Of a DNA stretch of 64,000 bases, positions 11,594 to 30,451 are shown piece by piece. The DNA comes from Candidatus Sumerlaeales bacterium (GTDB lineage Bacteria > Sumerlaeota > Sumerlaeia > Sumerlaeales > Sumerlaeaceae), in assembly GCA_038243585.1 (NCBI GenBank), contig JBBSQY010000007.1:5069-69068 (forward strand). The letters are read 5' to 3'. The notes under the pieces are model-generated. The model was not told the origin of the DNA, made no database searches, and saw only the letters and a list, made by a program, of their open reading frames with translations. A program made the position numbers and the translations under genes. Position 1 is the stretch's first letter. Each line of letters starts with the position of its first letter.

Positions 11594-14419
11594 TTAAACC
11601 CTAAACACTTTCATCACTTCATCGCCTAGGTGGTTGATCACTTTCACCGCGATTCGTCCGGTTTCCGGTTTGGCGAACGGGCGGGAGGTGTCGCTGTTTA
11701 GTGTATCCCAGGCTTCTTGGTCGATCTCGGCTTTGAGCGTTGTCTTTAGCGACTTATATGGGTCGTTTGCGCCGAGGAAGTACGCCTGTCTTACGAAGAA
11801 ACTTTCTTCGTTATAGTCCGTATCGATGAACCAGCAGGCGATTCCGTCGGCGCCGTCGCTTCTGACTTCTCCTGATGCCGGATGAAAGACGTCTACGCCG
11901 TTCACCCTTACCTGGATTCGGTCGTTGTCGGCCGGCAGGATTTCCACGTCAGGCTCGCCGAAGATCACGAAAAGGTTGCCCTTGCCGGTATTTTTCAGGT
12001 CCGTTGCCATGTGGAGATCAGCGTTCATTCTGGCCTTCAGCACCGGCAGACGGCCCAGCTTACTGAACTCCGTGCTGTGGGCATCATAGGCGAAGGCGCA
12101 ACTGATCAACACATCAAAATCTGCGTCGCCAGCTTCGCGCGCGGCCTCTACCAGGTCCGGGCGTGATACAGTCCCGAACTCCGGACCAAGGAAAACGGCC
12201 GCGCGCTTCTCCTTACCGTTGCCATCGCCGCCGCTTTCCATGTACCGGCCTTCAGCGCAGATACGGTCTCCTGCCCATGGTTTTAGCGATGTGAAGTTGA
12301 TCTTATCTTTCTTGTCCGATTGTTGCACGCCGGATGTCCGCAGGTTCTCAAGGATCATGGAAACAAAGGTTTGTCCTTCACCATAGGCCCCAGAGCCATC
12401 GGCAATCCGGTCGATCAATTCGTCATTTTCATCCAGACCAAGCACCCGGTGGGGAGACAGGCTTTCCACGGTGAAAGGTCCGGCCACGCGGACTTTCTTT
12501 TTATCTTCATAGGGTTTGTCATAAAGATATTCGGTATCGGCGCGGGCGGCGATAGACGCATCGATCTCTTTCTGGCCGGCGATGCGGTTTTCCCACCACT
12601 CCTTGTGAAGAGTGTGGGCTTCCATAGGCCAGGATGGTTCCGCCTCCCGGGGTATCTCCCATTCTTCCCAGGACTTGCCCAAGGTCTTGTTTAGCTTCTC
12701 CCTGATGGGTTCAAGGATTTCCTGGAACTGGTCCCAGATCACATCGATCTCTGTATTATTAGCGATGGATTTCAGGGTGATGTGAGGCACACGCTCATAA
12801 ACGAACCCATGGCGTATATCGCCTCGAGTAGATGCCGATGAAGGTTCGGCGCGGGTGATCTCAGCTTCCTTCTGTTGACCTTCGGAGGAGTCGGCGAGCA
12901 AATAATATGGATATCGGGCCCCCATAATGCGCGCCCGCGCAAGGGCCATAGCTACGCGGGAAGTGTCTACGGTGATCCAACGCCTTCCTAATTGTTCAGC
13001 GACATATGCGGTCGTACCTGATCCCATTGTTGGATCAAGGACGAGATCGCCTGGATCGGTCGCCATCAAAATACAACGCTCAATAACTCGAGGGGATGTC
13101 TCTACTACATAATTCAAACCGACTCCAATTTGCATCGAATCCCACCGTTCTGTTAGGGGAATTACTGCGAAATCGCCAACAAACCTTTTATATCTTACTG
13201 TTTTTCCAGTACTTACTATCCGATCGCTTTTGATAAGTCGACGTAATCCCAATTCTGTAGTTTTCCAGTGAGAACCCCTACGTGTCTCGTAAATCTTTCC
13301 TTGAAAAAGAAGCTCGCGACTCGCGTTTGGTGATTCACCGTCCGAAAACAAAGGAGCTGCTTGCAATCGTTTCAGAAAATCGACAGAAGATGTAGCTTTA
13401 CTTACAGCCTCTTTCTTAAACGGGATAGACTCATGCTGATCATATCGCTCGAGAGACTTCTCTCCCTCCTTTCGCTCTAGGTAAAGCTGCCGAAACTTAG
13501 TACTGGCTCTGTTTTTCCCATACCAGATTATGTAGTCTTGGGTAGACTCGATGAAGTTGCCTTCAATTCCGCCAGTCTTCTGAAATCCGATAAGGACAAT
13601 AAAGTTGTCTGATCCGAAAATCTCATCCATCATTACTCGGACACGGTGGACATTTTCGTCTCCAATCTGGACAAATACTGATCCAGAGTCGGTCAGTAGA
13701 TCTCTCGCCAGTATTAGTCGATCACGCAAATAAGTCAGGTATGAGTGGATACCATCTCGCCATGTATCGCGAAATGCTCTCACCTGCTCCGGCTCACGGG
13801 TGATGTTGTCGGCCTTGCCGTCCTTCACGTCGCGGTTGGTGGTGCTCCACTGGAAGTTGCTATTAAACTTAATGCCGTAAGGGGGATCAAAGTAGATACA
13901 CTGTACCTTGCCTCTCAGCCCCTCGCGCTCGGCCAGAGATGCCATCACCTGGAGGCTATCGCCCAGGATCATGCGGTTTGCCCAATGGGCATCGTGCTGG
14001 TAGAACTCCGTCTTGGCGTCGGAACTCGGCAATCCGTTAAAGTCCGCAAACAGATCAACCTGTTCATCTTCCTCTGGTGGCGCGGCTTTTTTGCTCTGGC
14101 GCACCAGGTCATCAATGAGAACCTTGGGATGAATCTTCTCCTGGATATAAAGCGGCGGCGCCTGCACTACCAGGTCTGACCAATCCTGCTGATCCTTTCC
14201 GCGCCACATCAACTGCGGATCCAAATCCACATTGCGCTGTTCCTTCTCCTGCTCCAGCCCTTCACTACCCCGCCCGTAAATCACCTTAACAGGGTCATGC
14301 TGCTCCTTGGCGACAATAGACTGATACTCAGCCGTAGGAATGTTTTTACGAGTCGCATCCTCATGGACGAGCGTCTCGATAGATTTTGCTGCGGTGGAGG
14401 TGATTCTCTTTGGGGGCAT
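11594..14419 (-). CDS. mod: Type III R-M methyltransferase subunit (beta-class amino-MTase)
   Basis: Catalytic FDPPYG precedes SAM-binding LDPTMGSGTT, with a variable TRD in between. Co-oriented with res. Confidence 0.9.
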   Translation of the reverse strand: MPPKRITSTAAKSIETLVHEDATRKNIPTAEYQSIVAKEQHDPVKVIYGRGSEGLEQEKEQRNVDLDPQLMWRGKDQQDWSDLVVQAPPLYIQEKIHPKVLIDDLVRQSKKAAPPEEDEQVDLFADFNGLPSSDAKTEFYQHDAHWANRMILGDSLQVMASLAEREGLRGKVQCIYFDPPYGIKFNSNFQWSTTNRDVKDGKADNITREPEQVRAFRDTWRDGIHSYLTYLRDRLILARDLLTDSGSVFVQIGDENVHRVRVMMDEIFGSDNFIVLIGFQKTGGIEGNFIESTQDYIIWYGKNRASTKFRQLYLERKEGEKSLERYDQHESIPFKKEAVSKATSSVDFLKRLQAAPLFSDGESPNASRELLFQGKIYETRRGSHWKTTELGLRRLIKSDRIVSTGKTVRYKRFVGDFAVIPLTERWDSMQIGVGLNYVVETSPRVIERCILMATDPGDLVLDPTMGSGTTAYVAEQLGRRWITVDTSRVAMALARARIMGARYPYYLLADSSEGQQKEAEITRAEPSSASTRGDIRHGFVYERVPHITLKSIANNTEIDVIWDQFQEILEPIREKLNKTLGKSWEEWEIPREAEPSWPMEAHTLHKEWWENRIAGQKEIDASIAARADTEYLYDKPYEDKKKVRVAGPFTVESLSPHRVLGLDENDELIDRIADGSGAYGEGQTFVSMILENLRTSGVQQSDKKDKINFTSLKPWAGDRICAEGRYMESGGDGNGKEKRAAVFLGPEFGTVSRPDLVEAAREAGDADFDVLISCAFAYDAHSTEFSKLGRLPVLKARMNADLHMATDLKNTGKGNLFVIFGEPDVEILPADNDRIQVRVNGVDVFHPASGEVRSDGADGIACWFIDTDYNEESFFVRQAYFLGANDPYKSLKTTLKAEIDQEAWDTLNSDTSRPFAKPETGRIAVKVINHLGDEVMKVFRV

Positions 14420-14421
14420 TA

Positions 14422-15267
14422 TTAGTTCTCGTCTTCGGCAGCACTTGGTTTTTTTGTATCGATGTTGGGTAGCGATTTTTCCAGGACTGAGACAACTCCG
14501 TCCACATGCTCATGGAGATCATCATTGATACTCTGTCCCAAAGAGTCAAGGAGGACTTCAACACCTTCACGGCGTGCGACCTTGGCAGCCGGAACGAAGT
14601 CGCTGTCGCCGGTTACCAGAATTATTGTATCAATTTGTTTCTTTAGCGTCAGTGTAGAAATATCAACTCCGATGCGCATATCCACACCCTTTTGACGGAG
14701 CCCCAGGCGAACATCATTGGGAGTTACCGCCTGCCAGGAAGTAACTATCTTTTGGAGCTTGGCAGCTTGCTCCTGCGTTAAAGGAACGGGCTCTTCGCCT
14801 GTTTCCGCTTTTACGATAGCGCCTTCCAGCACATGGACCCAGTCTCGCAGGCGAAGTAGCCGCTTTGTTGTGTCTGTATTAGCTATATGCCAACCGTCTT
14901 CCCGGACCACCTTGCCAAGTCGCAAAGCAAACTTTCGCCTTGTTCGAAGTTCGCGGAATAGCTCGTGGCGAAAGATTGCTTCAGGCGTTCTGTCAAAATG
15001 GATCTGACGGTTCTCCAGTGGGTGGTGTGCCGTTCCGTCGTATGGTAACGCATCATAGTAGAAAAGTCGATACACGTGATCTAGCCAACGTTCATCACTG
15101 GGATGGGCAGACTCCTCCACCAGCTTAAGCACGTGCTCTTTACAAAGAGTCACGGCCCAGTCTGCCACCTCTTTTGGGGTCGTGCATCTATGATGACCGA
15201 CGATCTTCGATACCCGCCGAAGAAAGAATGCGCCATCAATAAGAATGGCAATTCGCCTAATCCGCAT
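14422..15267 (-). CDS. NYN (PIN-like, LabA/DUF88) ribonuclease-domain protein
   Basis: ILIDGAFF, FYYDA, QKGVDMRIGVD, TGDSDFVP, HVDG acidic tetrad. RBS-like AGGAG upstream of the ATG. Confidence 0.9.
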   Translation of the reverse strand: MRIRRIAILIDGAFFLRRVSKIVGHHRCTTPKEVADWAVTLCKEHVLKLVEESAHPSDERWLDHVYRLFYYDALPYDGTAHHPLENRQIHFDRTPEAIFRHELFRELRTRRKFALRLGKVVREDGWHIANTDTTKRLLRLRDWVHVLEGAIVKAETGEEPVPLTQEQAAKLQKIVTSWQAVTPNDVRLGLRQKGVDMRIGVDISTLTLKKQIDTIILVTGDSDFVPAAKVARREGVEVLLDSLGQSINDDLHEHVDGVVSVLEKSLPNIDTKKPSAAEDEN

Positions 15268-15290
15268 AGCTACACTCCTGATCAGGCAAT

Positions 15291-15351
15291 AAAAAAGCCC
15301 CAGGATTTCGGGAACGCTCCGGATTGGTGAGCGCCTCTACTCTCAAGGGGC
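15291..15351 (-). ncRNA. Candidate structured leader/small RNA upstream of the NYN gene
   Basis: Minus strand GCCCCUUGAGAGUAGAGGCGCUCACCAAUCCGGAGCGUUCCCGAAAUCCUGGGGCUUUUUU. Outer stem GCCCC/GGGGC, inner stem GCGCUC/GAGCGU, AGUA/GAA internal loop, U6 tail. Confidence 0.55.
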
Positions 15352-15579
15352 GGATACATAAATTTGGTGTTAATTTAAACAAACCACATACAGTAAAATT
15401 TCGGTTCGCAATAACTTTTCCGACACCTATAGAAAGATTATGCGAGGAGCCACCTGAGAGGCGTTCATAGGTTTCGGGCGAAAAGGATGGTCTCAAAGTT
15501 GGTGTGTTCAAAGTTGTATTTTCCCTGTTAATAAAATTTTAGTGACTACCAGCTCGGGAGGCGTTTGACGCAAGAGAGG

Positions 15580-18500
15580 CTAAACAACAACCTCTTCAAC
15601 CTGAGCATCTATCATTTCATTAAAAGCGGCTTCCACCTTATCACCGAACTCGGCTTCCATGGCAAAGACCTCTTTAAACTCGGCAAAGGCCCACCGTCCA
15701 TATTGCTTTAAATGATTAACGCCGGGTATCCAGTAGGCGTCCATAGTCTGTTTCTTAAACTTGGCATCTTCGCCGCGGTACCCTTTGATCTCCACTACGA
15801 GATGCAGCGGATCCTCTTGGCCATCGTCCACAAGAACAATAAAGTCTGGCCGGTACATGCGGTTTTCAGAACCGAACCGGTATGGCACTTCAAAGCCCAT
15901 GCTATGGTTTTTCACATAAGCTTTGACCCGGGGATGAGTTTCCGCGACCCGGCAAAATTCAGCCTCCCAGTCGCTATCGAGGATGACCCAATTAACATGA
16001 CAGCGATCGGGCGAGGTTTTCCACCGTTCCGTCCTGGAAGTATTGAAGAGAACTGAACTTGTGGAACCTGACGGGCGGTATGGATCAACCACTGCCATTA
16101 TAGGTGAAACGTCTGCCATGGCCAGGGTAATGCCGGTTGTTATCTTTTCGCAGGCCATGTCGGCCAGTTCCTGGTACATAAGCTGGGCAGGGTACGTGCC
16201 GCCAGTGCAGACAAGGCAGGTATCCAGCCACTGCTTGGTGACGCGCCGCATATCATTAATGAGATGAACCTTGGGATCATCCCCCGGCTTACGCCACTTG
16301 GTATATACCAGCCGCTTGGCCAGATGAAAGATCAGAGTGGAAGTACGCATGTCTTCCAAATGCTTTAACGTAAGATCGATCCCCTCACCGATAATACCAT
16401 AGACTTGAACCTGAGACGGACCGACGAGGCGCGGATTCAGTTCGAGAACTGAGTCTTCATCATATTTCGCGATGAGCCGCTCTGATGGCAATTCAACGCG
16501 GTAACCCTGCACCCGAGGGAAAACAATTTCCAGGGCATCGCGATCCGGCCGTATGGCTTTGACGGTAATTGTCTCGCGGGGTGGCTGGGGTTTAGCGACT
16601 ACAGGTTTGGCGTTGAAGTCGAACGGAATGCCAAGGACGTCCGCATACTCGACATTAAAAAGTCCATCTTCGTTGAGATCATAAGACTGCCGGCGCAATG
16701 CGCGGCCAATGACCTGTTCGCACAAAAGCTGAGTTCCAAATGCGCGCACGCCAAGCACGTGGGTAACGGTATTGGCATCCCAACCCTCCGTCAACATAGA
16801 AACCGACACAACACACCGGATGGCTTCACCCAGCCGACCTTTTTTGCCTACGGTGTTCATGACCTCTCGAAGCAGCTCATTGTCCGGGATTGAATCGGCA
16901 TCTATAGATGTGCCGGTTCTGGCGATGATTTCGCGGCGGAATCGTTCTATTTCGTGGGCGGCTATCTTGCGGAAGTTGTCGTCAAGCGCCTCCCCGGACT
17001 CAAGCTGGGCACTATCGATAAGAAGGGTGCGTGGCTGCGGGTGTGGGTTATCATACTCATCGAAGTTGCGGAAAAGTTCCAAGCTACCGCGGACATGACG
17101 GCCAAGACCATCTTCGCCCAATTGCTCAAACCCGGATATGTACTCATATACAAGTTTTGAAATGGCGGTGTTTTGACAGACGACAATGAAGCAGGGCGGA
17201 ACATCAATGCCGCTCTCCTGCCAGAGTTCAAAGGTGGACTTGTAGTGACCGTACAGCGCCTCCAATGCGCTTTTCAGCAGTGTTGGCAGACTCAAAGGAT
17301 CTAGTGATCCCGATTTTGCGCGGCTACTTTTCGGCAGTTTTACTTTACCTTTGCTAAGGTGTTTCCACAAGTCACGGAACATCGGCATCTCGGTTCCCGG
17401 CAGGTTATCTGCAACGGGGACGCGGGGCAACTTAACAATGCCGCTCTCGATGGCATCCATAAGGGAAAAGTCGCTCATGGTCCAGGGAAAGAGAGTTCCC
17501 TCGGCATACCCAGAGCCACTGAGGAAAAAAGGTGTGGCTGATAGATCGACAACGGCATTTAGGCCGAGCTTCCGCTTTACGATTTCAATGCCAGAGATCC
17601 ACAGCCGGGCCGCCTCAGTGTTCTCTTTGGCTTCTGAATCACTCTTTTCGACGGCCACTTCATCGGAGTCACCCGGCTTTTCCCTGTAACAATGATGGGC
17701 CTCGTCGTTGAGTACCATAATGTTCCTGGTGCCCATAAGTGACGGCATCACCCGCTGGATCATCTTCCCTTCGGTTTCCAAGGTCTGAATGTCGGTTCCT
17801 GTGCGTCCCTTCAGCAGCGCGCGATTGCCGGCAGCAATGTCCATGGTCTCGCGGAGCTTAAAGGAATGATAGTTCGTAATGACGATGTTGGCTTTGCCGA
17901 GATCCGGGAGCATGTCTGTCGGAACGAGTTCTCGGGACTTGTAGTAGCTGTCAGGATCAGCTGGCTGCAGTACGCGAAGCCGGTCTTTAATGGTAATGCC
18001 GGGTGTAACAATGAGGAAACCACGGGTGAACTTGTTGCTGCCGGGCCGGCGCACTGCATTAACCGTCTGCCATGCAATGATCATGGCCATTACCGTAGTT
18101 TTGCCGGCACCAGTAGCCAGCTTAAGGGCGATACGCATCAGCTCCGGGTTGGCGTCGCGGTTAGCGTTGGTGATATGCTCCAGGAACTCCTTGTCCACTT
18201 TGCTTTGCGGCGCGACCTCCGTAAGCCATATCAGGGTTTCAGCCGCCTCTACCTGGCAAAAGAATGGTCGTACGCCGTTGAATTCATACTGACGCCAGTG
18301 TTGAAGGAGACGCGCTGTTTCCGGAGTTACCTGCCAGTCGTTTGGGTTTGGGAGCTTGCGCCAGAAATCGACTTTTTGCCGCAATGCATTAATGACAGGA
18401 TTAGGGTCATACTTCTGTTTTTCCGTTGAGACGCCATCACTATCCAGATTAAGCTCAACCTGATCCTTACTGCCAGTCCGCTTCCTGGATTTGGGGATTG

Positions 18501-18636
18501 GTGTGATGAACTCAGCAATCCGCCTGCGCTCGACAATCTGCTGGGTAGGCTGGCCTTCGGTGTCGAGTTCCCAATGACGGGCTGGGTACTCGTAAGGCGA
18601 GTTCAAGATCGGCTGTTCGAAAAAGCGGTTTTCCAT
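15580..18636 (-). CDS. res: Type III restriction endonuclease/helicase subunit
   Basis: KLATGAGKT, NDEAHH, LSATP, QVIGRALR, C-terminal PDFIV...VEIKG nuclease motif. Start placed at MENRFF (18636) rather than 18672. Confidence 0.9.
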   Translation of the reverse strand: MENRFFEQPILNSPYEYPARHWELDTEGQPTQQIVERRRIAEFITPIPKSRKRTGSKDQVELNLDSDGVSTEKQKYDPNPVINALRQKVDFWRKLPNPNDWQVTPETARLLQHWRQYEFNGVRPFFCQVEAAETLIWLTEVAPQSKVDKEFLEHITNANRDANPELMRIALKLATGAGKTTVMAMIIAWQTVNAVRRPGSNKFTRGFLIVTPGITIKDRLRVLQPADPDSYYKSRELVPTDMLPDLGKANIVITNYHSFKLRETMDIAAGNRALLKGRTGTDIQTLETEGKMIQRVMPSLMGTRNIMVLNDEAHHCYREKPGDSDEVAVEKSDSEAKENTEAARLWISGIEIVKRKLGLNAVVDLSATPFFLSGSGYAEGTLFPWTMSDFSLMDAIESGIVKLPRVPVADNLPGTEMPMFRDLWKHLSKGKVKLPKSSRAKSGSLDPLSLPTLLKSALEALYGHYKSTFELWQESGIDVPPCFIVVCQNTAISKLVYEYISGFEQLGEDGLGRHVRGSLELFRNFDEYDNPHPQPRTLLIDSAQLESGEALDDNFRKIAAHEIERFRREIIARTGTSIDADSIPDNELLREVMNTVGKKGRLGEAIRCVVSVSMLTEGWDANTVTHVLGVRAFGTQLLCEQVIGRALRRQSYDLNEDGLFNVEYADVLGIPFDFNAKPVVAKPQPPRETITVKAIRPDRDALEIVFPRVQGYRVELPSERLIAKYDEDSVLELNPRLVGPSQVQVYGIIGEGIDLTLKHLEDMRTSTLIFHLAKRLVYTKWRKPGDDPKVHLINDMRRVTKQWLDTCLVCTGGTYPAQLMYQELADMACEKITTGITLAMADVSPIMAVVDPYRPSGSTSSVLFNTSRTERWKTSPDRCHVNWVILDSDWEAEFCRVAETHPRVKAYVKNHSMGFEVPYRFGSENRMYRPDFIVLVDDGQEDPLHLVVEIKGYRGEDAKFKKQTMDAYWIPGVNHLKQYGRWAFAEFKEVFAMEAEFGDKVEAAFNEMIDAQVEEVVV

Positions 18637-19122
18637 AATTCCATCCCTGCTGCCATTGCGGCTGCGCATCATGCACTAAGTCGTGGCCAGCTGGCACCGT
18701 ATGTCAACTGGTTGCAACCATAAAAGGTACCGTTATTATACCTGCACCCATATCGCTTCCAAGGGCGTTCCACTGGGTGAAAGGCGTTCTCGGCGTCATC
18801 TGGACAGAATGCTGTTTCTGAGATGGAATTGACGAGCGTATATAGTGGGTTTTCTCACAAGTACAAAACCGACCGAGCCCCTGGCAGCCTGCAGACAGCA
18901 TCTGCTTAATTCCCGCAGCAATTATTGCCCTACAGACATCGCAGCCGCACCCAGCGTTACCATGAACTTCAACTGCAGATTAGCTAAACGTAGTATGACT
19001 GAGCCCTACTCTCCGTAGAAGCCCTGCTCACAATGCGCTGACGCGGCAGCGGCGCCTGAGATTTGTGTGCAGCCCTACTAAATACTCCCAGACACACCAG
19101 CCACAACAGCGAGGGAGCTACC

Positions 19123-19425
19123 ATGAAAAAGGCAAAGATCGATACATGCGAAGGCATTAGAGTTGCAGGCAAGACACCGGCAAGATTCAATGGTCTGGAG
19201 GCGGTTCGCAAATGGATACCCTGCGAAGAATTTTGCGAGTTATACAGGCTTCCCATCACCCGGCCTCCAAGGAAGACGCTGGCTAAGTATTCTACTTCAA
19301 AAGCCACGGCGGCCAGGAAATGCTGCGAACGACTAGCTGCGAAAGGACTCATTAAGACGCACCGGATCGACGGTCGCCTGTACGTAGCGATGGAGTCAGT
19401 AAGGTCGTTCGGAGAAAAGGCATGA
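19123..19425 (+). CDS. Small basic winged-helix/excisionase-like protein
   Basis: GAGGGAG RBS before ATG 19123. The C-terminus RLAAKGLIKTHRIDGRLYVAMESV resembles Xis-type HTH wings. Confidence 0.5.
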   Translation: MKKAKIDTCEGIRVAGKTPARFNGLEAVRKWIPCEEFCELYRLPITRPPRKTLAKYSTSKATAARKCCERLAAKGLIKTHRIDGRLYVAMESVRSFGEKA

Positions 19426-19491
19426 AGCAGCCGTCTTTAAACCACCCCACCGGGCTTCTTATGGTCACGACTTTAGCTGCTCTGGCTCAGG

Positions 19492-19636
19492 GTTTCAGTG
19501 ACTTTCGGTGGATTACAAACTCACACGCTACGACATCCAGACTATTGGTGCCGTTACTTTTAGCTGAGCCCGAACCGGCCATAACCTTCTGTCCGGACCT
19601 GACGGCAACCATAAAGCCACCGAAAGTCGCTGAAAC
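19492..19636 (+). repeat. 20-bp inverted repeat closing a long multi-stem structure
   Basis: GTTTCAGTGACTTTCGGTGG (19492-19511) vs CCACCGAAAGTCGCTGAAAC (19617-19636): 19/20 Watson-Crick pairs plus one U.G. Inner stem at 19543-19556/19600-19613. Confidence 0.85.
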
Positions 19637-19754
19637 TATGATACCATGGGCTTCTCGGGCCCCTCCACAATAAGTTTATGGCAAATTAACAAGTACACTC
19701 GCTGGTGCGTTAACCTAGTAATAAACCATAAAATATACGGTATAGGAGCAGCAA

Positions 19755-21956
19755 GTGCTCCTTCTGCCGAAAGGAAGATTTAATATGAGAAGAGTTTTAA
19801 GTACAGAGGACATAGCCAAACTAACTGTCGCTGATGCCGCAGCCGCTTGGAAAACCCAAAGCGAAAAACTGGATCATCGTCATTGCTCCTATCCTTACGT
19901 TTTTCAACCGCAGTACAACTCCAGCGTTGAGAAGTTCCTCCCTAGAGCCTTGGACTTCTTAGCAGACAAAGGAAATGTATTTAACGATCATATCGTTCCA
20001 GTGCCGCAAGCTGTTAATGCTGGATACGGCAGAATGCTAGTCGCAATATTTGATCACGATACTGAGGACATTGCCAAGGCGGCCAGAGCCGCATTTCTTC
20101 ATGAGCGCCATGGTTATGATTTACACCGGGCATATACGCTAAGCAGCGCGGAGCTTGGCCTTGATAGAAACACTGCCAAATCGGCTAATAATGTTGCAGA
20201 AGCGGTTCGCCGCCTGATCCGCTTTTTCAGGACGTGGCTGACAACTTGCTCCACTGTTCTGATCGATAGCCAGTGGCCAGCAACTCCAGCAGACTTAAAG
20301 CGTTCCAAAGCGTCGGTGCTCGTCGGCAGAATACGCAGAGAAATGATTGGGCGCGGCGTACTTGATCCTCGCCACGCTACCCCGAAGATGATTGCTGAGG
20401 CGCTGCGATCCTACACAGATAAATCACATTCTACAGGAGATGTTCGTCACTGGAATTCAAGTCTCAGGGATCTTGTGGCAGCGGTAAAGGATAATCAATT
20501 TGCAGGAATTACAGAAGAGCATCTCTCGGAACTAGCTGAAGTGCGTACGAATCCTCGCAACCCTGCTATGACAATCAGTGAAGAAGAACTCACCCAATTG
20601 TGGCCGGAGTACTTCCCCTCCCTTCCAGGAGACAAAACTCATCTGGATCCAGAGCAGGGAATGCCAGGCTATTTTAACAAACTACTAGCTGCCGAAGCAC
20701 CCTCAAACCCTGCTGGTCATAAGTGTCCACGCGAACGGCAGCTCCACCGGAACGCGCACACAAATAGATTCAGATCAATCCGCCGTTACCTGTACCGTAT
20801 CATACACAAAATCGGATGCGAGAACGGCGGCACAATTACGCTACGAGACGCTTTCGAACCAAGACGAATTCGCGAGTGGCTTGAAGCCGAAATAAAGGCT
20901 AAGGGCAAAGTTCATCACAGCCATAAAGACGGCTACATGCACTCGCTGATGGTTTCAAAGCATTATTTTGGCCACGATGTGGCAGACTTGGAGTCATGGA
21001 GTAGAGAAAACGTGCAATTTCCCGGTGACTGGGAATCTACCCGCGGCGAGCAGGCACTTAGAAACGGAAATCCCAAGACATTAGTAGAGCAGGCAGAGGC
21101 GATGGGGAGGTATGCCACTAGCTCATTGGAACTTTCTTCTAAAAAAGCCGGCTTACGAAGTACCCACTCTGGCGCCGGCCACTATTTGCTTCGAAAATCT
21201 GGCGAGATCGATTGCTGGCTCCGCCTTTTGACAGGCCTGCGGCCAGGAGCTCTGGATGAACTGGAGGTAGCCAACTCACCAGATCGTACTGGCTGCGCAC
21301 CTGCGATTTGGTTCGAATCCAAGGGCTATTATATTCTCTTTGTCCCTCTGCGCTGGATGAAACAGCATCTGGTTAATATATGGGGGAAAAACAATTCCAA
21401 GCGCTTGGATCTTGATTCAGCTACAGGAGAAGTTAAGGGCTTTGAATTTGAGATCCACAGGCCGGAAGCCGTTTCTGCCCTCTCAGATTATCTGCGTGAA
21501 GGTTGGCCTTATGCCAAGGCTGTTCAAGAAAAGCGTACGCGAAAGCTTTATCTCAACAGCAAAGGCGAACCGTTTCAAGACAATGGATTTGCTAAAGCAT
21601 TTACTTCATTGCGAGCCGAAGTTCGACATTTCATACATAAGTCTGAGGGCCGTGAAATTACAGATCACACCCGTTATCAGCATCGCCACATAATGGCCAC
21701 TTTTGTTGAAACTCATCTACCTGGGCACGGTCTAAAAACCACGTATTTGACTCATAGTTCAGATTTTGGATCGAACGCACTTTATGGGAAAACCAATATG
21801 ACACTGTTGCGCGAGGTGATAGACGAACTGCTTGATGGCAAGCCAACAAGGCTGACTCAACAGGAACTCCGGGAAAAAGAGCGGGACGAACAGTTAGTCA
21901 ATTTGCAAAAACAACTTGAAGAGATGATGACCAAATTAAACGATAAAGCCTCGTAA
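19755..21956 (+). CDS. Large, divergent tyrosine recombinase-like protein (733 aa)
   Basis: The C-terminal third has LLTGLRPGAL (R), WMKQH (K), YQHRHIMAT (HxxR-like box), LTHS (H) and ALYG (Y) in canonical order. Long helical N-terminus and coiled-coil tail. Start is GTG 19755 or ATG 19785. Confidence 0.65.
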   Translation: MLLLPKGRFNMRRVLSTEDIAKLTVADAAAAWKTQSEKLDHRHCSYPYVFQPQYNSSVEKFLPRALDFLADKGNVFNDHIVPVPQAVNAGYGRMLVAIFDHDTEDIAKAARAAFLHERHGYDLHRAYTLSSAELGLDRNTAKSANNVAEAVRRLIRFFRTWLTTCSTVLIDSQWPATPADLKRSKASVLVGRIRREMIGRGVLDPRHATPKMIAEALRSYTDKSHSTGDVRHWNSSLRDLVAAVKDNQFAGITEEHLSELAEVRTNPRNPAMTISEEELTQLWPEYFPSLPGDKTHLDPEQGMPGYFNKLLAAEAPSNPAGHKCPRERQLHRNAHTNRFRSIRRYLYRIIHKIGCENGGTITLRDAFEPRRIREWLEAEIKAKGKVHHSHKDGYMHSLMVSKHYFGHDVADLESWSRENVQFPGDWESTRGEQALRNGNPKTLVEQAEAMGRYATSSLELSSKKAGLRSTHSGAGHYLLRKSGEIDCWLRLLTGLRPGALDELEVANSPDRTGCAPAIWFESKGYYILFVPLRWMKQHLVNIWGKNNSKRLDLDSATGEVKGFEFEIHRPEAVSALSDYLREGWPYAKAVQEKRTRKLYLNSKGEPFQDNGFAKAFTSLRAEVRHFIHKSEGREITDHTRYQHRHIMATFVETHLPGHGLKTTYLTHSSDFGSNALYGKTNMTLLREVIDELLDGKPTRLTQQELREKERDEQLVNLQKQLEEMMTKLNDKAS

Positions 21957-21989
21957 TCAGGGAGCATACCAAAGGATTACAGCAGCCAC

Positions 21990-22033
21990 AAAAAATGCCC
22001 CCTGTCTCGCCATTAAGCGCAGGGGGCTTTTTT
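21990..22033. terminator. Bidirectional intrinsic terminator
   Basis: A-tract, GCCCCCTG...CAGGGGGC stem, T6, between convergent genes. Confidence 0.8.
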
Positions 22034-22502
22034 GAGGCCGGCCGCGTGTTAAGTATTGGTCAGGGTGCTAGATCCTTGGAGGAGGCACCTGCTGCACAAT
22101 ATTGTTGTTAGGACCAAGATACCACCGCTATCAGGCACCATCTTTAAGGAGCTAGCTAGCTCAAGCGTATCAGCGCCCAAACAAAAGATTCGGATGTTAA
22201 GAACAGCGGCTAATCCAAGCAAGCTGGAAAGTAAGCACGCCGGAATAAGCTGTTTGAAAGAGCGGCTACAATCTGCCCCTGGTAGCAAATAGCATTCAGG
22301 TTCATCGATAACTCATCACAACACTCGCCACGCAGGGGCGAAAGAGTACACCTAATTTTAATATCAGGTTCAGCATATGCCAACCCGGCTCAATTCCGTT
22401 TTCCTGGAAAATGTTAAACAACATAACCCGGCCTATAGCGTACCTTCGGTTCCGAAAAATATCCTTCGAAACGAACATAACGCAATCCGTTCAGTTCCAT
22501 TG

Positions 22503-23783
22503 TTAAGCGGCAGTTTCAGGTTCAGTCAGTAATAGACTCAATCCTTCAATTTCTTGAAGTGACTGTCCGGCAATCCCTTGCAAATCGCCATATAGCCCAG
22601 CGGTGCAATCAATTACGGTTCGAATCTGTTGCTCACGCTTCGCCCACATGCGGGTCGTGGTGCGTCGCTCCTTTTCCAAATCATCACTCATTTCGGAAAA
22701 TTTTTCCACTATTGCCTGTACTTTTTGCCGGAACTGCGGTCCTGTAAGATACCCGTAAATCCGCTCCATTTTTCCGTGTTGTCCTTCCATAGCAGCACGG
22801 ACCAGGTTAGTTTCAAGTATGGAGAACCGCAATGCAATAGCGACCGGAACCGCACATTGAAACGTGGTAATCCAAACTCCATCGATAAGATCAAAATTTC
22901 CAACATGCTTCGGCACAGCCTGTGAAGCGACGATAGCTATATCTGCTTTTGCGTTTCGCTGGTCATGACGTAATTTCGCCAACCAGGCGTCGCTCCAATT
23001 TTTCGTTCGCTTGCATTCCCACAGAATAGTGCCAGCAGTTTTTCCGGTTTGTCCCATCACCTGGTGAATTATATCACCGCCAGCCTCTCCTTTCGCTACT
23101 GGTAGGAATCTGTCCATCGGAAATGCTGCGCGCAAAGATGCTTCCAGGTCCAGTTCTTGTACTTCTCCCTGCAACTGCTGAGAGCCCTGCTCTGCCTTTC
23201 GTTTCAGTTCTTCAATCTTACGTTGCATACTAGTAATTAGCACTTCTTTCTCAAGCACTTTCAACCCCAGCGAATCCTCCGCTTCTCTGCGGCCCTGTTC
23301 CCGCACAGCATTAAGTGATTCCTGGATGCGCTTTTCAATAGTTAGCGCCATTTCCCGTTTTGCATCATCCAGCTCTCTCGATTTCCGCATCAGTTCCACC
23401 TGGGCCTGTTGTGCTTCCACCAGCTTTACGTCTTGCTGCTCAAGAATCTTGTTTAGCTCATTTAATTTTTGTTCCTTAGCTTCAAAGTTTGCAGCTACTG
23501 CCAGACGTGCTTTCTTTGACTCTTCCGCTGCAATTTTTCCTCTTTCAGCAGCCATTCGCAGGGTGACTTGCTCGTCAACGGACGCCTTCGCTTTCACCAA
23601 TTCGAGTTTCTGTTTTTGCAGCTCTGCCTGCTGCTTGTTCACTTCGATATCTTTGGCGGCGATTGCGGTTTCGTACTGCTTTCGGGTTTGCTCGAGCAGG
23701 GGCGCGGCAAGTGATTCCGTCAACCGGATATCGGCCTTACAAGATGGGCAAAAAACAACTAGTTCGTTCATTAGACTCTCCAA
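22503..23783 (-). CDS. DUF2130-family coiled-coil protein with C-terminal PD-(D/E)xK-like domain
   Basis: N-terminal CPSC, long coiled coil, GSQQLQGEVQELDLE, GDI...ILWECKRTKNWSDAWLAKL. Confidence 0.8.
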   Translation of the reverse strand: MESLMNELVVFCPSCKADIRLTESLAAPLLEQTRKQYETAIAAKDIEVNKQQAELQKQKLELVKAKASVDEQVTLRMAAERGKIAAEESKKARLAVAANFEAKEQKLNELNKILEQQDVKLVEAQQAQVELMRKSRELDDAKREMALTIEKRIQESLNAVREQGRREAEDSLGLKVLEKEVLITSMQRKIEELKRKAEQGSQQLQGEVQELDLEASLRAAFPMDRFLPVAKGEAGGDIIHQVMGQTGKTAGTILWECKRTKNWSDAWLAKLRHDQRNAKADIAIVASQAVPKHVGNFDLIDGVWITTFQCAVPVAIALRFSILETNLVRAAMEGQHGKMERIYGYLTGPQFRQKVQAIVEKFSEMSDDLEKERRTTTRMWAKREQQIRTVIDCTAGLYGDLQGIAGQSLQEIEGLSLLLTEPETAA

Positions 23784-23921
23784 GATTATTATTTATTGTT
23801 GTCCGCTCTTCTGTCAACCGCGCACCATTACGCCGTTTCATGCGCCGATCCAAAAGATTGATTTTTACTCATTGGTTGATGTTGTCACTTTTCTAGAAAG
23901 CCCGGGACAAAGCTCGGGCTA

Positions 23922-24620
23922 TCAATATCCGACCCTGCGGACAACCTCTCCACTAAGGCTTAGGACTTTGGCTTTCGTCAGGTAAAACCAATCTGATTCG
24001 GAAAGAACTGCATCGATGGATTCAACAACCTCGGAAAAACGACTCGGGATTAGATGAATATCCTCTTCCAGATCTGCCAGGAGAAGTTCCGCAGCGGCAT
24101 GCAAAACAGCAAGACGTGCGTCATTGTAGTTCTGAGGTAGGCGTGACTGTAGTGCCGTAAGTACAAAGTCAGAAGCAATCACTCGAATCTGGTGCGGTTG
24201 CAGTAGAAGTGAGCGATTTTTTGCCTCGAATACTTCATCTGATTCAACATCCCGGAGCCAGATGCTTTCGCAACCTAGCCCAAGATTCTCTAGTTTTCCG
24301 TGGTCGGCCACTATCGCGAGCATCCTTGTCTCGATGCCGTTTTCCACACTTACCGGAGACCGCCAGACCTTAAGTGCAACCTCATCCACTAGTGCCACAA
24401 TCGGCAGCATCGAATAATGGTACTGGCAGTTAATCGTTTTAGCTTTTTCCGGTTTTCGCCTGGACTTTTCCGGTAGCACGCTCATCATCTCTAGCACGTA
24501 AACTCGTTGAGAGCTTGATTCGCTATCGGACAGCAGCTGTTCAAATTGCCATTTCAGATATTTCTTCTCACCTCGCGGAACGTCTTCATTAGGGTTTTGA
24601 TCGTCTCCTTTGCTTATCAT
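23922..24620 (-). CDS. Hypothetical protein (232 aa)
   Basis: Translationally coupled (TAATG) to the upstream ORF. No motif recognised. Confidence 0.65.
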   Translation of the reverse strand: MISKGDDQNPNEDVPRGEKKYLKWQFEQLLSDSESSSQRVYVLEMMSVLPEKSRRKPEKAKTINCQYHYSMLPIVALVDEVALKVWRSPVSVENGIETRMLAIVADHGKLENLGLGCESIWLRDVESDEVFEAKNRSLLLQPHQIRVIASDFVLTALQSRLPQNYNDARLAVLHAAAELLLADLEEDIHLIPSRFSEVVESIDAVLSESDWFYLTKAKVLSLSGEVVRRVGY

Positions 24621-24865
24621 TATAGGTTCCTCGTCCGCGTGTCGAAATGCGCTGCCACCTTTGCGGCCGGAATCTGTTTTTTAGTCTGCTGGGTTTTCGA
24701 AATACCACATTCTGAAAGATGCTGTAGATCAGCAGGAGGCTCGCCGGCAGATAAGATGTCGCCCAAATAGGTAACACCTGTACTAATGTACAAAGAGCCG
24801 GAATAGCCGTTCGACGAGAAGACAACGCAACGCGCGATAGGCGCTGAGTCACGGCGCCTTATCAT
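24620..24865 (-). CDS. Hypothetical protein (81 aa)
   Basis: ATGA and TAATG overlaps with both neighbours. Confidence 0.55.
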   Translation of the reverse strand: MIRRRDSAPIARCVVFSSNGYSGSLYISTGVTYLGDILSAGEPPADLQHLSECGISKTQQTKKQIPAAKVAAHFDTRTRNL

Positions 24866-25773
24866 TTACCACCGACCGCAGTCAGCAAATCCGCAACGTA
24901 GGGGACCAGCGCGTCCAGACCGTTTGGAGCAACTTCGTTTAAATTGACTTTTCTAATAACGGATCGGATGATTTCCTCATCTGAAGCCGGTATTGGTCTA
25001 GCCACATTAGCGAAATCAAGCTCGTCCCAGATCTTTTCGACCGCGCGGTTTTCAATATAATTATCCACATCTGCCACAGCTTCGCGGTTGGATTCCATTA
25101 AAACCCAGTCAGAAAAAGTGTTGGGGGGAAATGGTTTGATTACGGCGGCAGATACCCATACGCTGCCGTCTTCGCCAGAATAGATTTCCTCAAAGGCTGC
25201 TCTGACTTTGATAACCTTCTCTCGTAAACCGTCCTGCTCCCACCACCCCATCCTGCCTTCGACCAGCAGTTCCATTTTCCCTTGAAAGGGCCCTCGCCGA
25301 AATTTACGACGAGTTACAGAGGCTATTGTGGAGCCGTTAGCTTCCAACACATACCCGTCTACCCGTTCCATTACAGCGATCCAGTACCTGGCGACCTCTG
25401 GCTTTGGTTCATACTGCGCAGCAATGTTCCACGGGCGAGCCTTGCAGCTAACCCATTTAAAGGCACTACGAGGATCCATCACCAAGTGAATGATCTGCGC
25501 CTGCCTGCTTACCAGCGCTACCCAAGTGCTTCTCGGCGGGTTATTGATCCGCTTTTCGCCGTGCGATACGCTGCACCCCAACTTTACGTATACTGCCCGT
25601 TTTTCAACTGGCGTAGACAGCCACTTTTCCAAATTTTCGAGCTGGCGAGCAGTGGTCAGGTGTTCAATCCCGGATATGCCGCGGTACTTCATAGGCAGGT
25701 ATTCCAGACGGCGAGGACCCCGTGGCTTTTTTTCGGTTACTTGTTCTGCTTTGTTCTGCGAAATGATTTCCAT
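24862..25773 (-). CDS. Hypothetical protein (303 aa), first gene of an operon divergent from the XRE gene
   Basis: Strong RBS (AAGGAG) before the ATG. No motif recognised. Confidence 0.7.
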   Translation of the reverse strand: MEIISQNKAEQVTEKKPRGPRRLEYLPMKYRGISGIEHLTTARQLENLEKWLSTPVEKRAVYVKLGCSVSHGEKRINNPPRSTWVALVSRQAQIIHLVMDPRSAFKWVSCKARPWNIAAQYEPKPEVARYWIAVMERVDGYVLEANGSTIASVTRRKFRRGPFQGKMELLVEGRMGWWEQDGLREKVIKVRAAFEEIYSGEDGSVWVSAAVIKPFPPNTFSDWVLMESNREAVADVDNYIENRAVEKIWDELDFANVARPIPASDEEIIRSVIRKVNLNEVAPNGLDALVPYVADLLTAVGGK

Positions 25774-25776
25774 TGT

Positions 25777-25854
25777 GTTCTCCTTAAGGAACGATATGTG
25801 TGTATAAGTTCCTTTAAAGGAACACTATTCACGAGATTGTTCCGCTAAAGGAAC
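25777..25854. promoter_or_regulatory. Three 16-bp palindromic operators (GTTC-N8-GAAC) at 31-bp spacing
   Basis: GTTCTCCTTAAGGAAC 25777, GTTCCTTTAAAGGAAC 25808 (perfect palindrome), GTTCCGCTAAAGGAAC 25839. Confidence 0.8.
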
Positions 25855-25902
25855 AATAACTTAAAAATAAATGCATTACCCATGATTCTCTAATCGAGCG
25901 CC

Positions 25903-26274
25903 GTGTTGTTGGAAATGATAATGAAACCAGAAAAGCGTTCCAATAGCCCAACTTATCTTCTGCCTCAATCTATCGGACAGGTGATTAATACAGCACGCCA
26001 CGCAAAGGGCTGGAGTCTTCGGCAGTTGGCAGAAGCAGCGGGCGTCGGGCCTACTACGATTCACCGCCTGGAAGGCGGTGACGTACGTATACAGTACGAT
26101 ATCATACTTCGGATATGTGATGCGCTTGCTTTGCGCGGCGCCGAAGGTGAACAGCTGGCTGTTGATCCACCACCGGTGCTGGATCAGGAGCTTGAGATTA
26201 TTGAAGCTCTTCGGTCTGGTAGGATTCCCGAGGCACTTGAAAAAGTTGCCGGCTATCTCCGGCAAAAGAAGTAG
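25903..26274 (+). CDS. XRE/Cro-CI family HTH transcriptional regulator
   Basis: IGQVINTARHAKGWSLRQLAEAAGVGPTTIHRLEGG...ILRICDAL. The true start may be ATG 25921. Confidence 0.85.
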   Translation: MLLEMIMKPEKRSNSPTYLLPQSIGQVINTARHAKGWSLRQLAEAAGVGPTTIHRLEGGDVRIQYDIILRICDALALRGAEGEQLAVDPPPVLDQELEIIEALRSGRIPEALEKVAGYLRQKK

Positions 26275-27162
26275 GCTGAATTTAGCAGCTTTCTGTCTGG
26301 CGGCCTGTTTCATCTTTGCTTCCGGTCTCTCAGAATCTCCCAGATGGGCGCGCATAGGAATCTTCCATAATCTGCAGTGGTTAGGTAAAGAGATTGGAAG
26401 AAGTTCTTGGACGATTAAACAATTACGAATATCGCAATTTATTAAAAGCAGCTCTGTGCCAAACTTAGATTGCCCGCCGTCGAACATGACACACAATTTT
26501 TTCTGATGGAACGCACGGAAATGGCGAGAATTTTCACCCACAGCTTATCAGCCCATCGAAGGCCCCCGCTTTTACATTGCTGCGTGTTCTGACATCCGTT
26601 CATGACCTTTATACTTTGTGCAGCAGAACACACAACGCATCATCGGTGCCAGCTACCTTATTACTGTCATCCTCTTCTGATAGAATCGCAAACCACACCA
26701 CTGTCCGCCGTTCGCACAAATCGGTTGTGCTACATTGCCAGTTGGTGAGTCTAGCAAATGTCTCCCGGATTTTGCCGCTCTCCACGCCAACTTTGGGGAT
26801 ATTATCATCTGTCGGTTTGACAGTATAAGATAGCTTCAGCCATCCAGATTTTTTCGGTCTGCTATCGCTTGTGAGTTTTGTTTTTTCATATTGCAGACAA
26901 CAACTCCGCCAGCACTTTCGTTGCCGTTACCTGTCTGTCCCCGAAGCTTTCCTACACGGTTTTGGCCCTGTCAAAACTCGCGCCCCCGATAGAACAGGCG
27001 GCGTCCCATTTCCAAGATTCGATAGATTTAGCGGTGGTTGATGCTGGCGGGATTGGCTTGTCTCACATCTTAAGGCAGATACCGACCACGCACCTTTTTG
27101 TCACCATGACGGGACACGCTGACAATAGGAAACGCTGTGTTCAACCCTTTTATGAGAGAAAG

Positions 27163-27200
27163 AAAAAACGAGCGGCGGACTGAGAGAGGCCGCCGCCCGT
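27163..27200 (-). terminator. Intrinsic terminator of the 469-aa gene
   Basis: Minus strand ACGGGCGGCGG-loop-CCGCCGCUCGU-U5, immediately after the stop at 27205. Confidence 0.75.
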
Positions 27201-27204
27201 ATGG

Positions 27205-28614
27205 TTAGAATACAGTAAACATTCTTACAAGTGGCATTACAAGGGCCGTCTCTTCAGGCGAGCTTTTGATCACCTGTTCAATGGCATGAAGCAATTCATG
27301 GAACTCCGCAAGGTGCTTTTTCCCATAAGACGACAAGCACTTCTTCGGCAGATCAAATAGTTCCTGAACGGTCGCTGGCAACGCGGGTGGCGTCGATTCA
27401 TCGTCTTTTGGCTTTTCCAGTTGTTTACGAGATTTGTTCACAAGTTTACTCGCGACCTCTTCGTTCACCACTTTGCCATTGTCCAACAGAGCACAAATTT
27501 TATCGACAAGTTTATCGGCGTTCTTCTTTTTGTAGCCGCCGATCAGCAACATTGCCTTCTTCTTGCAGTTTTTAACGTCGATCTCTTGTAAAAGTAAGCC
27601 GCGCTTACTTTTCATCCTCTGCTCAAAAACACCGTAGCGGAAGCAGCGACTTAGAAATGCTTTGCCCCACTGGTCCTCGGGAAAGTTCTCCTCCTTCCAG
27701 ACAAAATATAATCTAGGGCTTTTCAAATCCTGTTTCTTTTTAAGAAGCAGTCTTCCAAGCTGGATCTCATAGCAGAACTGATCTGAAAGGTTGCGTCGCC
27801 CACGTTTCAGACAGCTTCTTTCACTCATGACTCCGCCGTTGAATGCCTTCAAAAGAGCCGGTATTTCCATTTCATCGATATCATCAGAACTATTATAATT
27901 GGTAGCATCGGGCGCATCAACATCTCCTTCGTCGGATGAATGCGGTTCTTCTGTTATAATGGTGCTCTCTAAGTCCTGTTGGGAATCGTAAATACCGAAG
28001 ACGATGGCGGTATCCGACACCAAGTCTGATTCTCCGGATGTCGCCGGCAGACTTTCGTCATTGTTATTATCAGGGGTCTTATTATGAATCGCAACATCAT
28101 TGGCGGTTGGTTCGGGGGGGAGAGTAGCTTGCTCAGTTCCAACCGCCTTTAAAGCCACATGCGGATTGTCAGCAAACGCCTTACAGGCCTTCTTGACGAC
28201 TTCCATTAGTTTAAACGGGCCGCTCTTAAAGTCATTTTCCATGTAATTTTCCAACTCGGTGTAAATTGTTAGTGGAAGAATACCGTTAATGACCAGGGCG
28301 CCAGTCATTACCAGATGAATGCCTTTTGACAGGGAGTTGAGCACCAGCCAGTTGATCAAGGCGTAACCAGAGACGATATTTCCTTCAATGGTTGAGGAAA
28401 CAACGCCGTCCTTATTACGGACAACAAAATCTTTTGGGAGCTTCATGCCCACCGGGTTTTCCCAACCGGCCAGAGATTCGTAGAAACCTAAACCATTCAG
28501 GTACGCAATTGAAGTCTCTGCTTCAATTTTCGCCAAGACTACTTCGCGCCCCTGGGTCTGGTTGGCGGCTTTCTTTTTACGAGGCTCCGTTACTTTTCTT
28601 GATGTTTCGTTCAT
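27205..28614 (-). CDS. Hypothetical protein (469 aa) with acidic linker and possible DUF3102-like segment
   Basis: Long ORF with RBS (AAGGAG) and its own terminator. EIQLGRLLLKKK...FVWKEENF loosely resembles DUF3102. Confidence 0.65.
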   Translation of the reverse strand: MNETSRKVTEPRKKKAANQTQGREVVLAKIEAETSIAYLNGLGFYESLAGWENPVGMKLPKDFVVRNKDGVVSSTIEGNIVSGYALINWLVLNSLSKGIHLVMTGALVINGILPLTIYTELENYMENDFKSGPFKLMEVVKKACKAFADNPHVALKAVGTEQATLPPEPTANDVAIHNKTPDNNNDESLPATSGESDLVSDTAIVFGIYDSQQDLESTIITEEPHSSDEGDVDAPDATNYNSSDDIDEMEIPALLKAFNGGVMSERSCLKRGRRNLSDQFCYEIQLGRLLLKKKQDLKSPRLYFVWKEENFPEDQWGKAFLSRCFRYGVFEQRMKSKRGLLLQEIDVKNCKKKAMLLIGGYKKKNADKLVDKICALLDNGKVVNEEVASKLVNKSRKQLEKPKDDESTPPALPATVQELFDLPKKCLSSYGKKHLAEFHELLHAIEQVIKSSPEETALVMPLVRMFTVF

Positions 28615-30330: not shown

Positions 30331-30451
30331 ACTTTGCTGCAGTCGTTGCTGGAACCGTATCATCATTAGTATTTCATTTCTGAATTAACCCTGAATCACT
30401 GCTTGAGGCCACTGTCGGGTTTTGGTGAAATTGATCCGATCGAGGTGTTCC

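Follow-up and report, generated by a model that had tools for sequence, protein, structure and literature searches.

What is the function of an open reading frame (ORF) nearly twice the size of an ordinary integrase, and of the non-coding DNA that precedes it, in a Candidatus Sumerlaeales bacterium? We address this question in a stretch of 64,000 nucleotides (nt), hereafter the window (contig JBBSQY010000007.1, positions 5,069 to 69,068). Tyrosine recombinases drive much of the DNA movement in prokaryotes and are standard tools of genome engineering. A sequence-only reading had described at 19123-22033 a self-contained module, i.e. a small winged-helix gene, a structured spacer, an atypical tyrosine recombinase of 733 amino acids (aa) and a terminator, and each of these elements is found there. 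What is new is a conserved array of five copies of a short DNA word, in the spacer upstream of the large recombinase. The open-access literature that we searched for large or atypical tyrosine recombinases and for their classification describes neither this array nor the recombinase family.

A conserved five-site array upstream of the recombinase gene

Five loci were compared: the window, L004, L007 and L008 (three further genomes of the same phylum, Candidatus Sumerlaeota) and L009 (a metagenome contig). In the window the recombinase is preceded by a 100-codon ORF (19123-19425) and then by 359 nt that hold no convincing gene. An ORF at 19422-19673 was considered as a gene; it has one close relative only (74% identity), its stop is not conserved, and it was treated as non-coding, which is unproven. 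No protein is conserved across the five spacers.

In all five loci five copies of a locus-specific word of 6-10 bp precede the start codon, arranged as (-)(+)(+)(-)(+). The array spans ~270 bp and the intervals between its successive sites are 107-120, 29-32, 63-67 and 50-53 nt. The word of the window, CCATAA, was recognised by aligning its spacer with that of its closest relative, L008. With positions given relative to the start codon (ATG 19785 in the window), the five sites are 19459-19464 (TTATGG, i.e. CCATAA on the - strand; -326), 19579-19584 (CCATAA, +; -206), 19609-19614 (CCATAA, +; -176), 19676-19681 (TTATGG, -; -109) and 19726-19731 (CCATAA, +; -59); sites 2, 4 and 5 align with the corresponding sites of L008. 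In L008 the word is GCAATAAT (-321, -214, -182, -117, -67). L004 carries five exact copies of CCACTCAG (-311, -200, -169, -106, -53) and L007 five of CCACACAG (-315, -204, -175, -110, -58), two of which match at 6/8 positions only. In L009 the word is ACCACTCA (-300, -192, -162, -97, -46), with one extra copy at -76.

Five copies of CCATAA in the 340-nt spacer of the window compare with 0.24 expected (P about 5e-6), and this spacer is the sole 340-nt stretch with at least five copies in the 3.43-Mb genome. In L004 the five matches to its own word across 19.9 kb all fall inside one 260-bp stretch. The recombinases of the five loci are 20-43% identical in every domain.

Because all five sites of a locus carry one word, which RNA stems would not require, the words are predicted to be protein-binding DNA sites. 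The words of the window and of L008 (CCATAA and CAATAAT) are related, and the recombinases of these two loci are mutually the closest, at 43% for the catalytic domain. L004, L007 and L009 have the word CCAC[TA]C in common and their recombinases group together (41-43%). A small ORF precedes the array in four of the five loci; in L008 the array is kept and no small helix-turn-helix (HTH) ORF is recognisable. Since word similarity tracks recombinase relatedness, and since L008 keeps its five sites without that ORF, the recombinase would be favoured over the small HTH protein as the binder of the words, which is an indication rather than a proof.

The words could also be operators only, bound by the small HTH protein or by a host regulator, with the recombinase acting on a site elsewhere. 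Short repeated words are common targets of HTH proteins, no classical core site was found in the array, and the 45-50 bp immediately before the ribosome-binding site are framed by sites 4 and 5 in all five loci. The two arguments given above for the recombinase as binder speak against this explanation, and five phased sites over 270 bp, held at 20-43% protein identity, would go beyond the usual needs of repression. We consider operators alone rather unlikely, and retain binding by the recombinase as the preferred reading of the words.

Between sites 4 and 5 lies an 11-nt block, CGCTGGTGCGT (19700-19710, +), with an exact match at the corresponding position of L008, while the array words of the two loci differ. 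It has five copies in the whole genome and could be a promoter/operator element or a core-type element. In L008 it stands about -92 from the start codon in the orientation of the gene, at the centre of a short imperfect palindrome (by eye).

A large recombinase outside the modelled sequence family

The recombinase ORF (19755-21956, +) encodes 733 aa counted from a GTG, and residue numbers refer to this frame throughout. Because homologues align from M11 on in the family alignment, and because AAAGGAAG lies at 19770-19777, 7 nt before ATG 19785 (by eye), this ATG is probably the start, giving 723 aa. The protein has no match in the four annotation libraries searched (Pfam, NCBIfam, PHROGs and PADLOC), and none of the 20 aligned family members matches PF00589 (Phage_integrase) at E <= 1. 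A word-indexed homology search returned the query itself only, and in PDB both the protein sequence and the family profile retrieved only coiled-coil chains, i.e. noise from the tail (profile E 0.85-4.5). An exhaustive HMMER search of 1.84 billion representatives gave 21 relatives: nine are full-length (672-769 aa, 25-36% identical) and the remainder are fragments. The nearest ESM Atlas clusters contain proteins of 570-760 aa, some of them positive for PF00589; we take this as a lead only.

The distribution of the family is sporadic. It is present in 4/75 genomes of the phylum, and tblastn detected it in none of 72,556 plasmid records and none of 50,697 phage records. A search with conserved alignment blocks gave zero hits in genome contigs and in viral contigs and one metagenome locus; a second search of this kind gave only L010, which is the contig of L008. 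Two other alignments contained no sufficiently conserved block.

Structure prediction, a check proposed with the sequence-only reading, gave a tyrosine recombinase fold. The AlphaFold 2 (AF2) model built on the family alignment has a mean pLDDT of 81.8. With this model every row listed by Foldseek (ranks 1-48) is a tyrosine recombinase, at a probability of ~1 and a best E of 4.9e-3; lambda Int, Tn1549 Int, XerH, XerD, Cre and XerA are among them. Structure comparison scored 11.9 for XerA, 11.5 for XerH and ~11 for Cre, each over residues ~282-711. The catalytic domain alone scored 8.9-11.0 (root-mean-square deviation 3.0-4.5 Å) with 3nkh_A, the C-terminal domain of XerD, topoisomerase IB and the core of lambda Int. 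The protelomerases TelA, ResT and TelK scored 4.0-4.9 and unrelated rows at most 3.9. Whole-protein VIA alignments to XerA, XerH, Cre, lambda Int and Tn1549 Int start at model residues 275-331 and cover the N-terminal domains of these enzymes. The model thus contains a catalytic domain with the fold of the superfamily (residues ~431-698; 21045-21848, +) and, N-terminal to it, a core-binding domain of ordinary type (residues ~282-430; 20598-21044, +). Judged by this model, the protein belongs to the tyrosine recombinase superfamily at the level of the fold and lies outside its modelled sequence family PF00589, in agreement with what had been proposed from the sequence. The ORF product represents a rare family of large tyrosine recombinases for which no sequence model exists, and is probably active.

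The columns of the catalytic domain that are invariant in the nine full-length members include R496 (in TGLRP), K536 (MKQ), Y641, R644, H645, H667 (YLTH) and Y677-G678. They follow the order of the catalytic pentad and nucleophile, R-K-H-R-H/W-Y, except that a tyrosine (Y641) occupies the position of His II. By hand count, column 641 is Y in 14 of 17 covering sequences and H, K and N once each. The active site was assigned by motif, not from measured geometry, and its predicted nucleophile is Y677. The residues R-K-(YQHRH)-H-Y, previously noticed in canonical order in the last third of the protein, are these, with Y641-Q-H-R644-H645 as the central motif.

Two further parts distinguish the protein. 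The N-terminal extension (residues ~11-280; 19785-20594, +) is all helical, like the model as a whole up to roughly residue 500, and the structural match to recombinases does not include residues ~1-280. Folded alone, the N-terminal part again gives an all-helical model (pLDDT 83.2), for which Foldseek found no significant match (best E 1.0). Among its top 16 rows, 8 are SAM-like core-binding domains of integrases; seven of these align to residues ~157-262 and one (2oxo_A) to 13-153. The extension thus possibly contains an extra core-binding-like bundle. Against the Arm-DNA-bind families of Pfam the N-terminal 282 aa gave no match at E <= 10. The sequence-only reading had assigned ~450 aa to a helical N-terminus with possibly duplicated core-binding domains: the helical character holds, the additional part is reduced to residues ~1-280, residues ~282-430 being the ordinary core-binding domain, and the duplication is left with the weak Foldseek signal just described. 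At the other end a single helix (699-732) forms a C-terminal coiled-coil tail (21849-21956, +, stop codon included), which had been recognised correctly and which also attracts the coiled-coil chains in PDB searches. It is present, at variable length, in all full-length members of the family alignment.

Spacer folding and inverted repeats

Y641 raises the question of a hairpin-forming reaction. It stands three residues before Arg II, at what we take, from the Y-x-x-R spacing and from the residue numbering of ResT, to be the position of the second tyrosine of ResT. According to the ResT structure paper (PMC11317167) this second active-site tyrosine (Y293 in ResT, Y363 in TelA) is otherwise absent from recombinases. 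The enzyme could then be a protelomerase-like resolvase that forms hairpins, or could act on a folded RNA or single-stranded DNA hairpin made from the spacer, as an attC site or a guide RNA. Like this protein, ResT and TelA are large multidomain enzymes of the same superfamily, and the whole spacer of the window folds at z -3.4. The segment between sites 1 and 2, in contrast, gave z values of -1.6 to +1.6 in 10 tests out of 10 on both strands, i.e. no better than dinucleotide shuffles, and the spacer matches no Rfam family. The "structured spacer" of the sequence-only reading is correct as far as the whole-spacer value and the 28-nt repeat described below are concerned, not for the interior, and the "structured nucleic acid" partner suggested there is not supported: the signal of the spacer lies in repeated DNA words, not in a fold. 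We regard reactions of the hairpin type as very unlikely.

The 28-nt inverted repeat has its left arm at 19487-19514, which contains the tandem words CACCGAAAGT / CACTGAAAC on the - strand, and its right arm at 19614-19641. The arms are 86% complementary, are separated by 99 nt, and enclose array sites 2 and 3; the word they carry is other than CCATAA. Neither the repeat nor its 21-nt core recurs elsewhere in the genome; the closest relative retains the repeat. It is an extra feature, seen only in the lineage of the window.

This repeat bears on a DNA-inversion switch, in which the ~100-bp segment between sites 1 and 2/3 (in the window, between the 28-nt arms) would be inverted and so change the direction of a promoter or of some other signal. 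The recombinase gene of known invertons adjoins the invertible segment, and an inverted pair of sites 107-120 bp apart is present in all five loci, to which the window adds its 28-nt repeat. In the four other loci, however, the inverted identity is just 8-13 nt, too short for a full crossover site, and ~100 bp is a very short segment for an inversion. The alternative orientation was not seen among assembled contigs, the genome holds no other targets, and no sigma-70-like promoter was predicted in the spacer of the window. A switch of this type appears clearly unlikely.

The reaction proposed for the array

Recombination between identical sites of the res, loxP or dif type regenerates the site, whereas attP x attB integration leaves a split site. 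The array is intact in 5/5 loci, no split of the attL/attR type being seen, and no distal copies of the words were found within +-10 kb of the loci or elsewhere in the genome of the window. Because the array is intact and single-copy in the loci, and attP x attB would split it, recombination of identical sites is favoured. We thus put forward, tentatively and at slightly less than even chances, that site and recombinase form a self-contained cassette, in which the enzyme recombines identical copies of the intact array.

In such a cassette the recombinase itself would bind the five words, possibly by its N-terminal extension, as lambda-type integrases bind arm-type sites. The coiled-coil tail would aid oligomerisation and the array would be wrapped into a defined nucleoprotein complex, marking the enzyme's own locus for recombination. 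The position of sites 4 and 5 around the stretch upstream of the ribosome-binding site suggests that the complex would probably also repress the recombinase gene. Two identical copies of the locus could then recombine, as res, loxP or dif do, resolving or fusing cassette-bearing molecules, with the small HTH protein as an architectural or directionality factor. For each of these steps (binding, oligomerisation, autoregulation and type of reaction) we infer rather than observe.

An integrase with an attP-like site would read the same array differently: the words would be arm-type sites around a cryptic core, and attP would recombine with attB with the help of an Xis-like small protein. Five arm-type-like sites in both orientations over ~270 bp, beside an integrase-type gene and an HTH_17-type gene, fit this description; attP of lambda likewise has five arm-type sites, over about 240 bp, and the module is always in variable, island-like DNA. 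Yet the array is unsplit in all loci, on contigs with housekeeping or otherwise chromosomal-looking genes. Further copies of the words are lacking (see above), and the longest attB-like identity between non-coding parts of the module and the genome is 14-16 nt, the level of chance. Moreover two of the islands already have canonical integrases beside a transfer RNA (tRNA) gene, and the N-terminal domain is helical, unlike the beta-sheet fold of arm-binding domains, and matches no Arm-DNA-bind family. We judge an attP-type site rather unlikely and keep the cassette that recombines identical arrays as the preferred reading.

Several points nevertheless weigh against the latter. The crossover point was not located: a search for two inverted half-sites with a 5-9-bp overlap and 10-nt arms matching at 9 or more of 10 positions gave no candidate for a classical core at a conserved place in any locus (a degenerate core could escape this search), and outside the window the words alone provide the short inverted identity given above, too short for complete recombination sites. 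The homology to canonical integrases rests on predicted structure and motifs, since an hhalign comparison of the family with three of them was not significant (probability 0.4%). Comparison of the window's small protein with the HTH_17-like proteins from the other loci gave no significant similarity. Of the 22 members of the family five have a readable locus, four of which come from one phylum. The assembled contigs of two DNA runs show no joints or variants and are uninformative on inversion or excision. Lastly, we can name no reason why a chromosomal island should need a cassette of the resolution type.

A broader form of the idea, which seems to us quite improbable, is that the cassette is a portable docking system, whose enzyme would fuse or separate any two DNAs that carry the same array. 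If so, the array might capture circular segments of defence islands, or such segments might be exchanged between genomes. This would be a landing-pad logic like that of integrons, with a different, heterobivalent-like recombinase that has duplicated domains of the core-binding type.

The small upstream gene and the terminator

The small gene of the window (19123-19425, +) encodes 100 aa, probably a winged-HTH or excisionase-like accessory protein. It has four homologues of 99 aa (64-90% identity, residues 29-90 being best conserved) and no match in Pfam, NCBIfam, PHROG or PADLOC. Its counterparts are more telling: that of L004 reaches Pfam HTH_17 (27.2 bits, cut-off 27), and that of L007 matches PHROG 66, "excisionase and transcriptional regulator", at E 1.3e-3. 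The L004 and L007 proteins are 52-58% identical, and those of L007 and L009 35%. Between the window protein and the L004/L007/L009 type hhalign gave a collinear and weak match (E 0.0012, probability 19%); a GntR winged-HTH in PDB matches at E 0.097, also weak, and the Atlas score is 0.88. An Xis-like function is plausible. The claim of a winged-helix/Xis-like gene is thus right in that the gene is real and conserved, its identity as a winged helix being weakly supported by the GntR and hhalign matches; the association of the recombinase with a small gene is confirmed, the L004 counterpart reaching HTH_17. The predicted complex of recombinase and small protein has an ipSAE of 0.00, which gives no answer either way.

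Downstream of the recombinase an intrinsic-terminator-like hairpin is present at 21990-22033 (+), as expected from the sequence-only reading: an A-run, the GC-rich arms GCCCCCTG...CAGGGGGC and T6. The fold of 21957-22045 has -34.3 kcal/mol (z -2.67). A scan with a consensus terminator did not report this hairpin because its loop is long.

The module as cargo of defence islands

The module sits in lower-GC DNA that also encodes a Druantia DruE-like helicase, an AbiL pair together with a UvrD/GajB-like helicase, and a type III restriction-modification system that includes an NYN gene. The helicase at 547-6321 (+, 1924 aa) is a full-length match to Druantia DruE (E 0 for DruE4/DruE2 in PADLOC; DEAD, Helicase_C and MZB in Pfam). 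Its upstream partner genes would fall before the start of the window, and the 340-aa ORF that follows it (6470-7492) has no Pfam or PADLOC match. At 7498-11506 (-) AbiLi (AAA_21), AbiLii (RloB) and the UvrD/GajB-like helicase stand in this order and in one direction, possibly as a three-gene variant of AbiL. The type III-like operon (11594-18672, -) combines a 941-aa methyltransferase with a BPTD_3080-family endonuclease (1329 bits in NCBIfam) and has the NYN-domain gene inserted between Mod and Res. The operon and the small gene of the module diverge from a common 450-nt stretch, which is the promoter region of the operon. Contigs of public runs break at 19040-19064, ~60-80 nt upstream of the small gene, with depths of 8.41 and 9.54 on either side, possibly an ordinary break in the assembly.

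On the other side of the module a DUF2130 protein (426 aa), followed by ORFs of 232, 303 and 469 aa, occupies 22503-28614 (-), with an XRE-type HTH gene among them at 25903-26274 (+). The 232-aa and 303-aa ORFs are without a match in Pfam, NCBIfam, PHROGs and PADLOC, and so is the 469-aa ORF in Pfam, PHROGs and PADLOC. At 29143-31848 a tRNA-Ala(cgc) gene is abutted by two canonical integrases in tandem, which share 32% identity; the second integrase ORF (30422-31837) runs ~65 nt into the tRNA gene on the opposite strand. This tRNA-Ala (31773-31848, -) is the nearest tRNA, at 9.8 kb from the module, in agreement with the earlier statement that no tRNA att site is adjacent, and it bounds the island. 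No partial repeat of the tRNA, which would mark the second end, was found on contig C7; a full copy, 99% identical, is on another contig (G000:C92:1736-1816). Because two genomes of the same genus compared with 14000-33900 keep only the tRNA-Ala, part of the adjacent integrase and the gene right of the tRNA, at least 14000-31770 is, by this comparison, a strain-specific island.

The other loci have comparable surroundings. In L008 a canonical HTH_17 gene and integrase lie beside a tRNA-Gly, and this side of the island is absent from 10 related genomes, one of them of the same genus. For G011 and G053 the DNA of related genomes is too divergent for empty sites to be found. In L004 the neighbour is Mrr; adjoining this endonuclease gene, 5024-5631 has a 91%-identical copy on G011:C20 and short pieces on several contigs, and is probably a repeat or an insertion sequence. 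Downstream of the L007 recombinase and beside a HigB toxin gene, genes for a TerB_N/TerB/TerB_C protein, an ATPase of the BrxC/D family and a DEAD/ResIII helicase follow one another at 1734-7774 (-); they look like a defence-type cluster. L009 lies next to XRE and DUF6119 genes. The module is cargo of variable defence islands, and, because the islands of the window and of L008 both have canonical Phage_integrase genes beside the tRNA, its recombinase is not, at least in these two cases, the integrase that placed the island there. "Self-contained" therefore holds for the module itself, which is cargo of a defence island bounded by tRNA-Ala and equipped with two ordinary integrases.

Comparison with known recombination systems

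At the level of the fold the closest enzymes are those of the Xer/Cre type (XerA, XerH, XerD, Cre). Compared with them the protein is ~2 times as large, has a 280-aa N-terminal extension, a coiled-coil tail and a Tyr for His II, and lacks a sequence model; a five-site array of 270 bp stands in place of a ~30-bp core. It is not a housekeeping system of dimer resolution, because its distribution is sporadic.

The TnpI-IRS systems of Tn4430 and Tn5401 follow a similar logic: several copies of one recombinase-binding word immediately precede the recombinase gene and extend over its promoter region, and the site stays intact after recombination. Here, in contrast, no closely spaced inverted core pair was found, the sites are five and not four, over 270 bp, the protein is 2.5 times larger, and no DDE transposase or terminal repeats are seen near the module. 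The logic of the array also resembles that of lambda-type integrases acting with Xis. The arm-binding (AB) domain of the latter is a small beta-sheet fold, whereas the extension here is helical and of 280 aa, no classical core was found, and the array is never split into attL/attR.

The classification of Smyshlyaev et al. 2021 (PMC8138268) places lambda-type heterobivalent integrases among the AB-domain tyrosine recombinases and describes RitA recombinases with "two sequential CB domains". RitA is thus a precedent for an extra core-binding bundle, in a recombinase that is likewise oversized. Tfp and GinC of SE and GInt elements are also oversized proteins with the tyrosine recombinase fold: according to PMC10214605, filtered Tfp orthologs have at least 550 aa with a central recombinase fold, and Srap/GinD a C-terminal coiled coil. 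Tfp and GinC are devoid of the catalytic residues that are invariant here. In SE, GInt, RIT and Tn554 elements three or four recombinase-fold genes form one operon (intA-tfp-intB-srap etc., as given in that paper). The module, by contrast, has a single recombinase gene, between the 100-aa gene and the terminator; the integrases at 29143-31837 are 7 kb away and unrelated to it.

Taken together, the oversized ORF represents a new architecture, with an extra helical N-terminal module, a Tyr for His II and a coiled-coil tail. Because no sequence model exists, annotation based on domains would presumably miss the family. The recurrence of the module in defence islands poses the question of a role in assembling or stabilising them. 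With a candidate cognate site that keeps its layout and varies in sequence between loci, the family provides a natural series of candidate enzymes and sites for studies of the evolution of specificity; if the enzymes are active, they could be used as orthogonal recombinases with long and specific sites.

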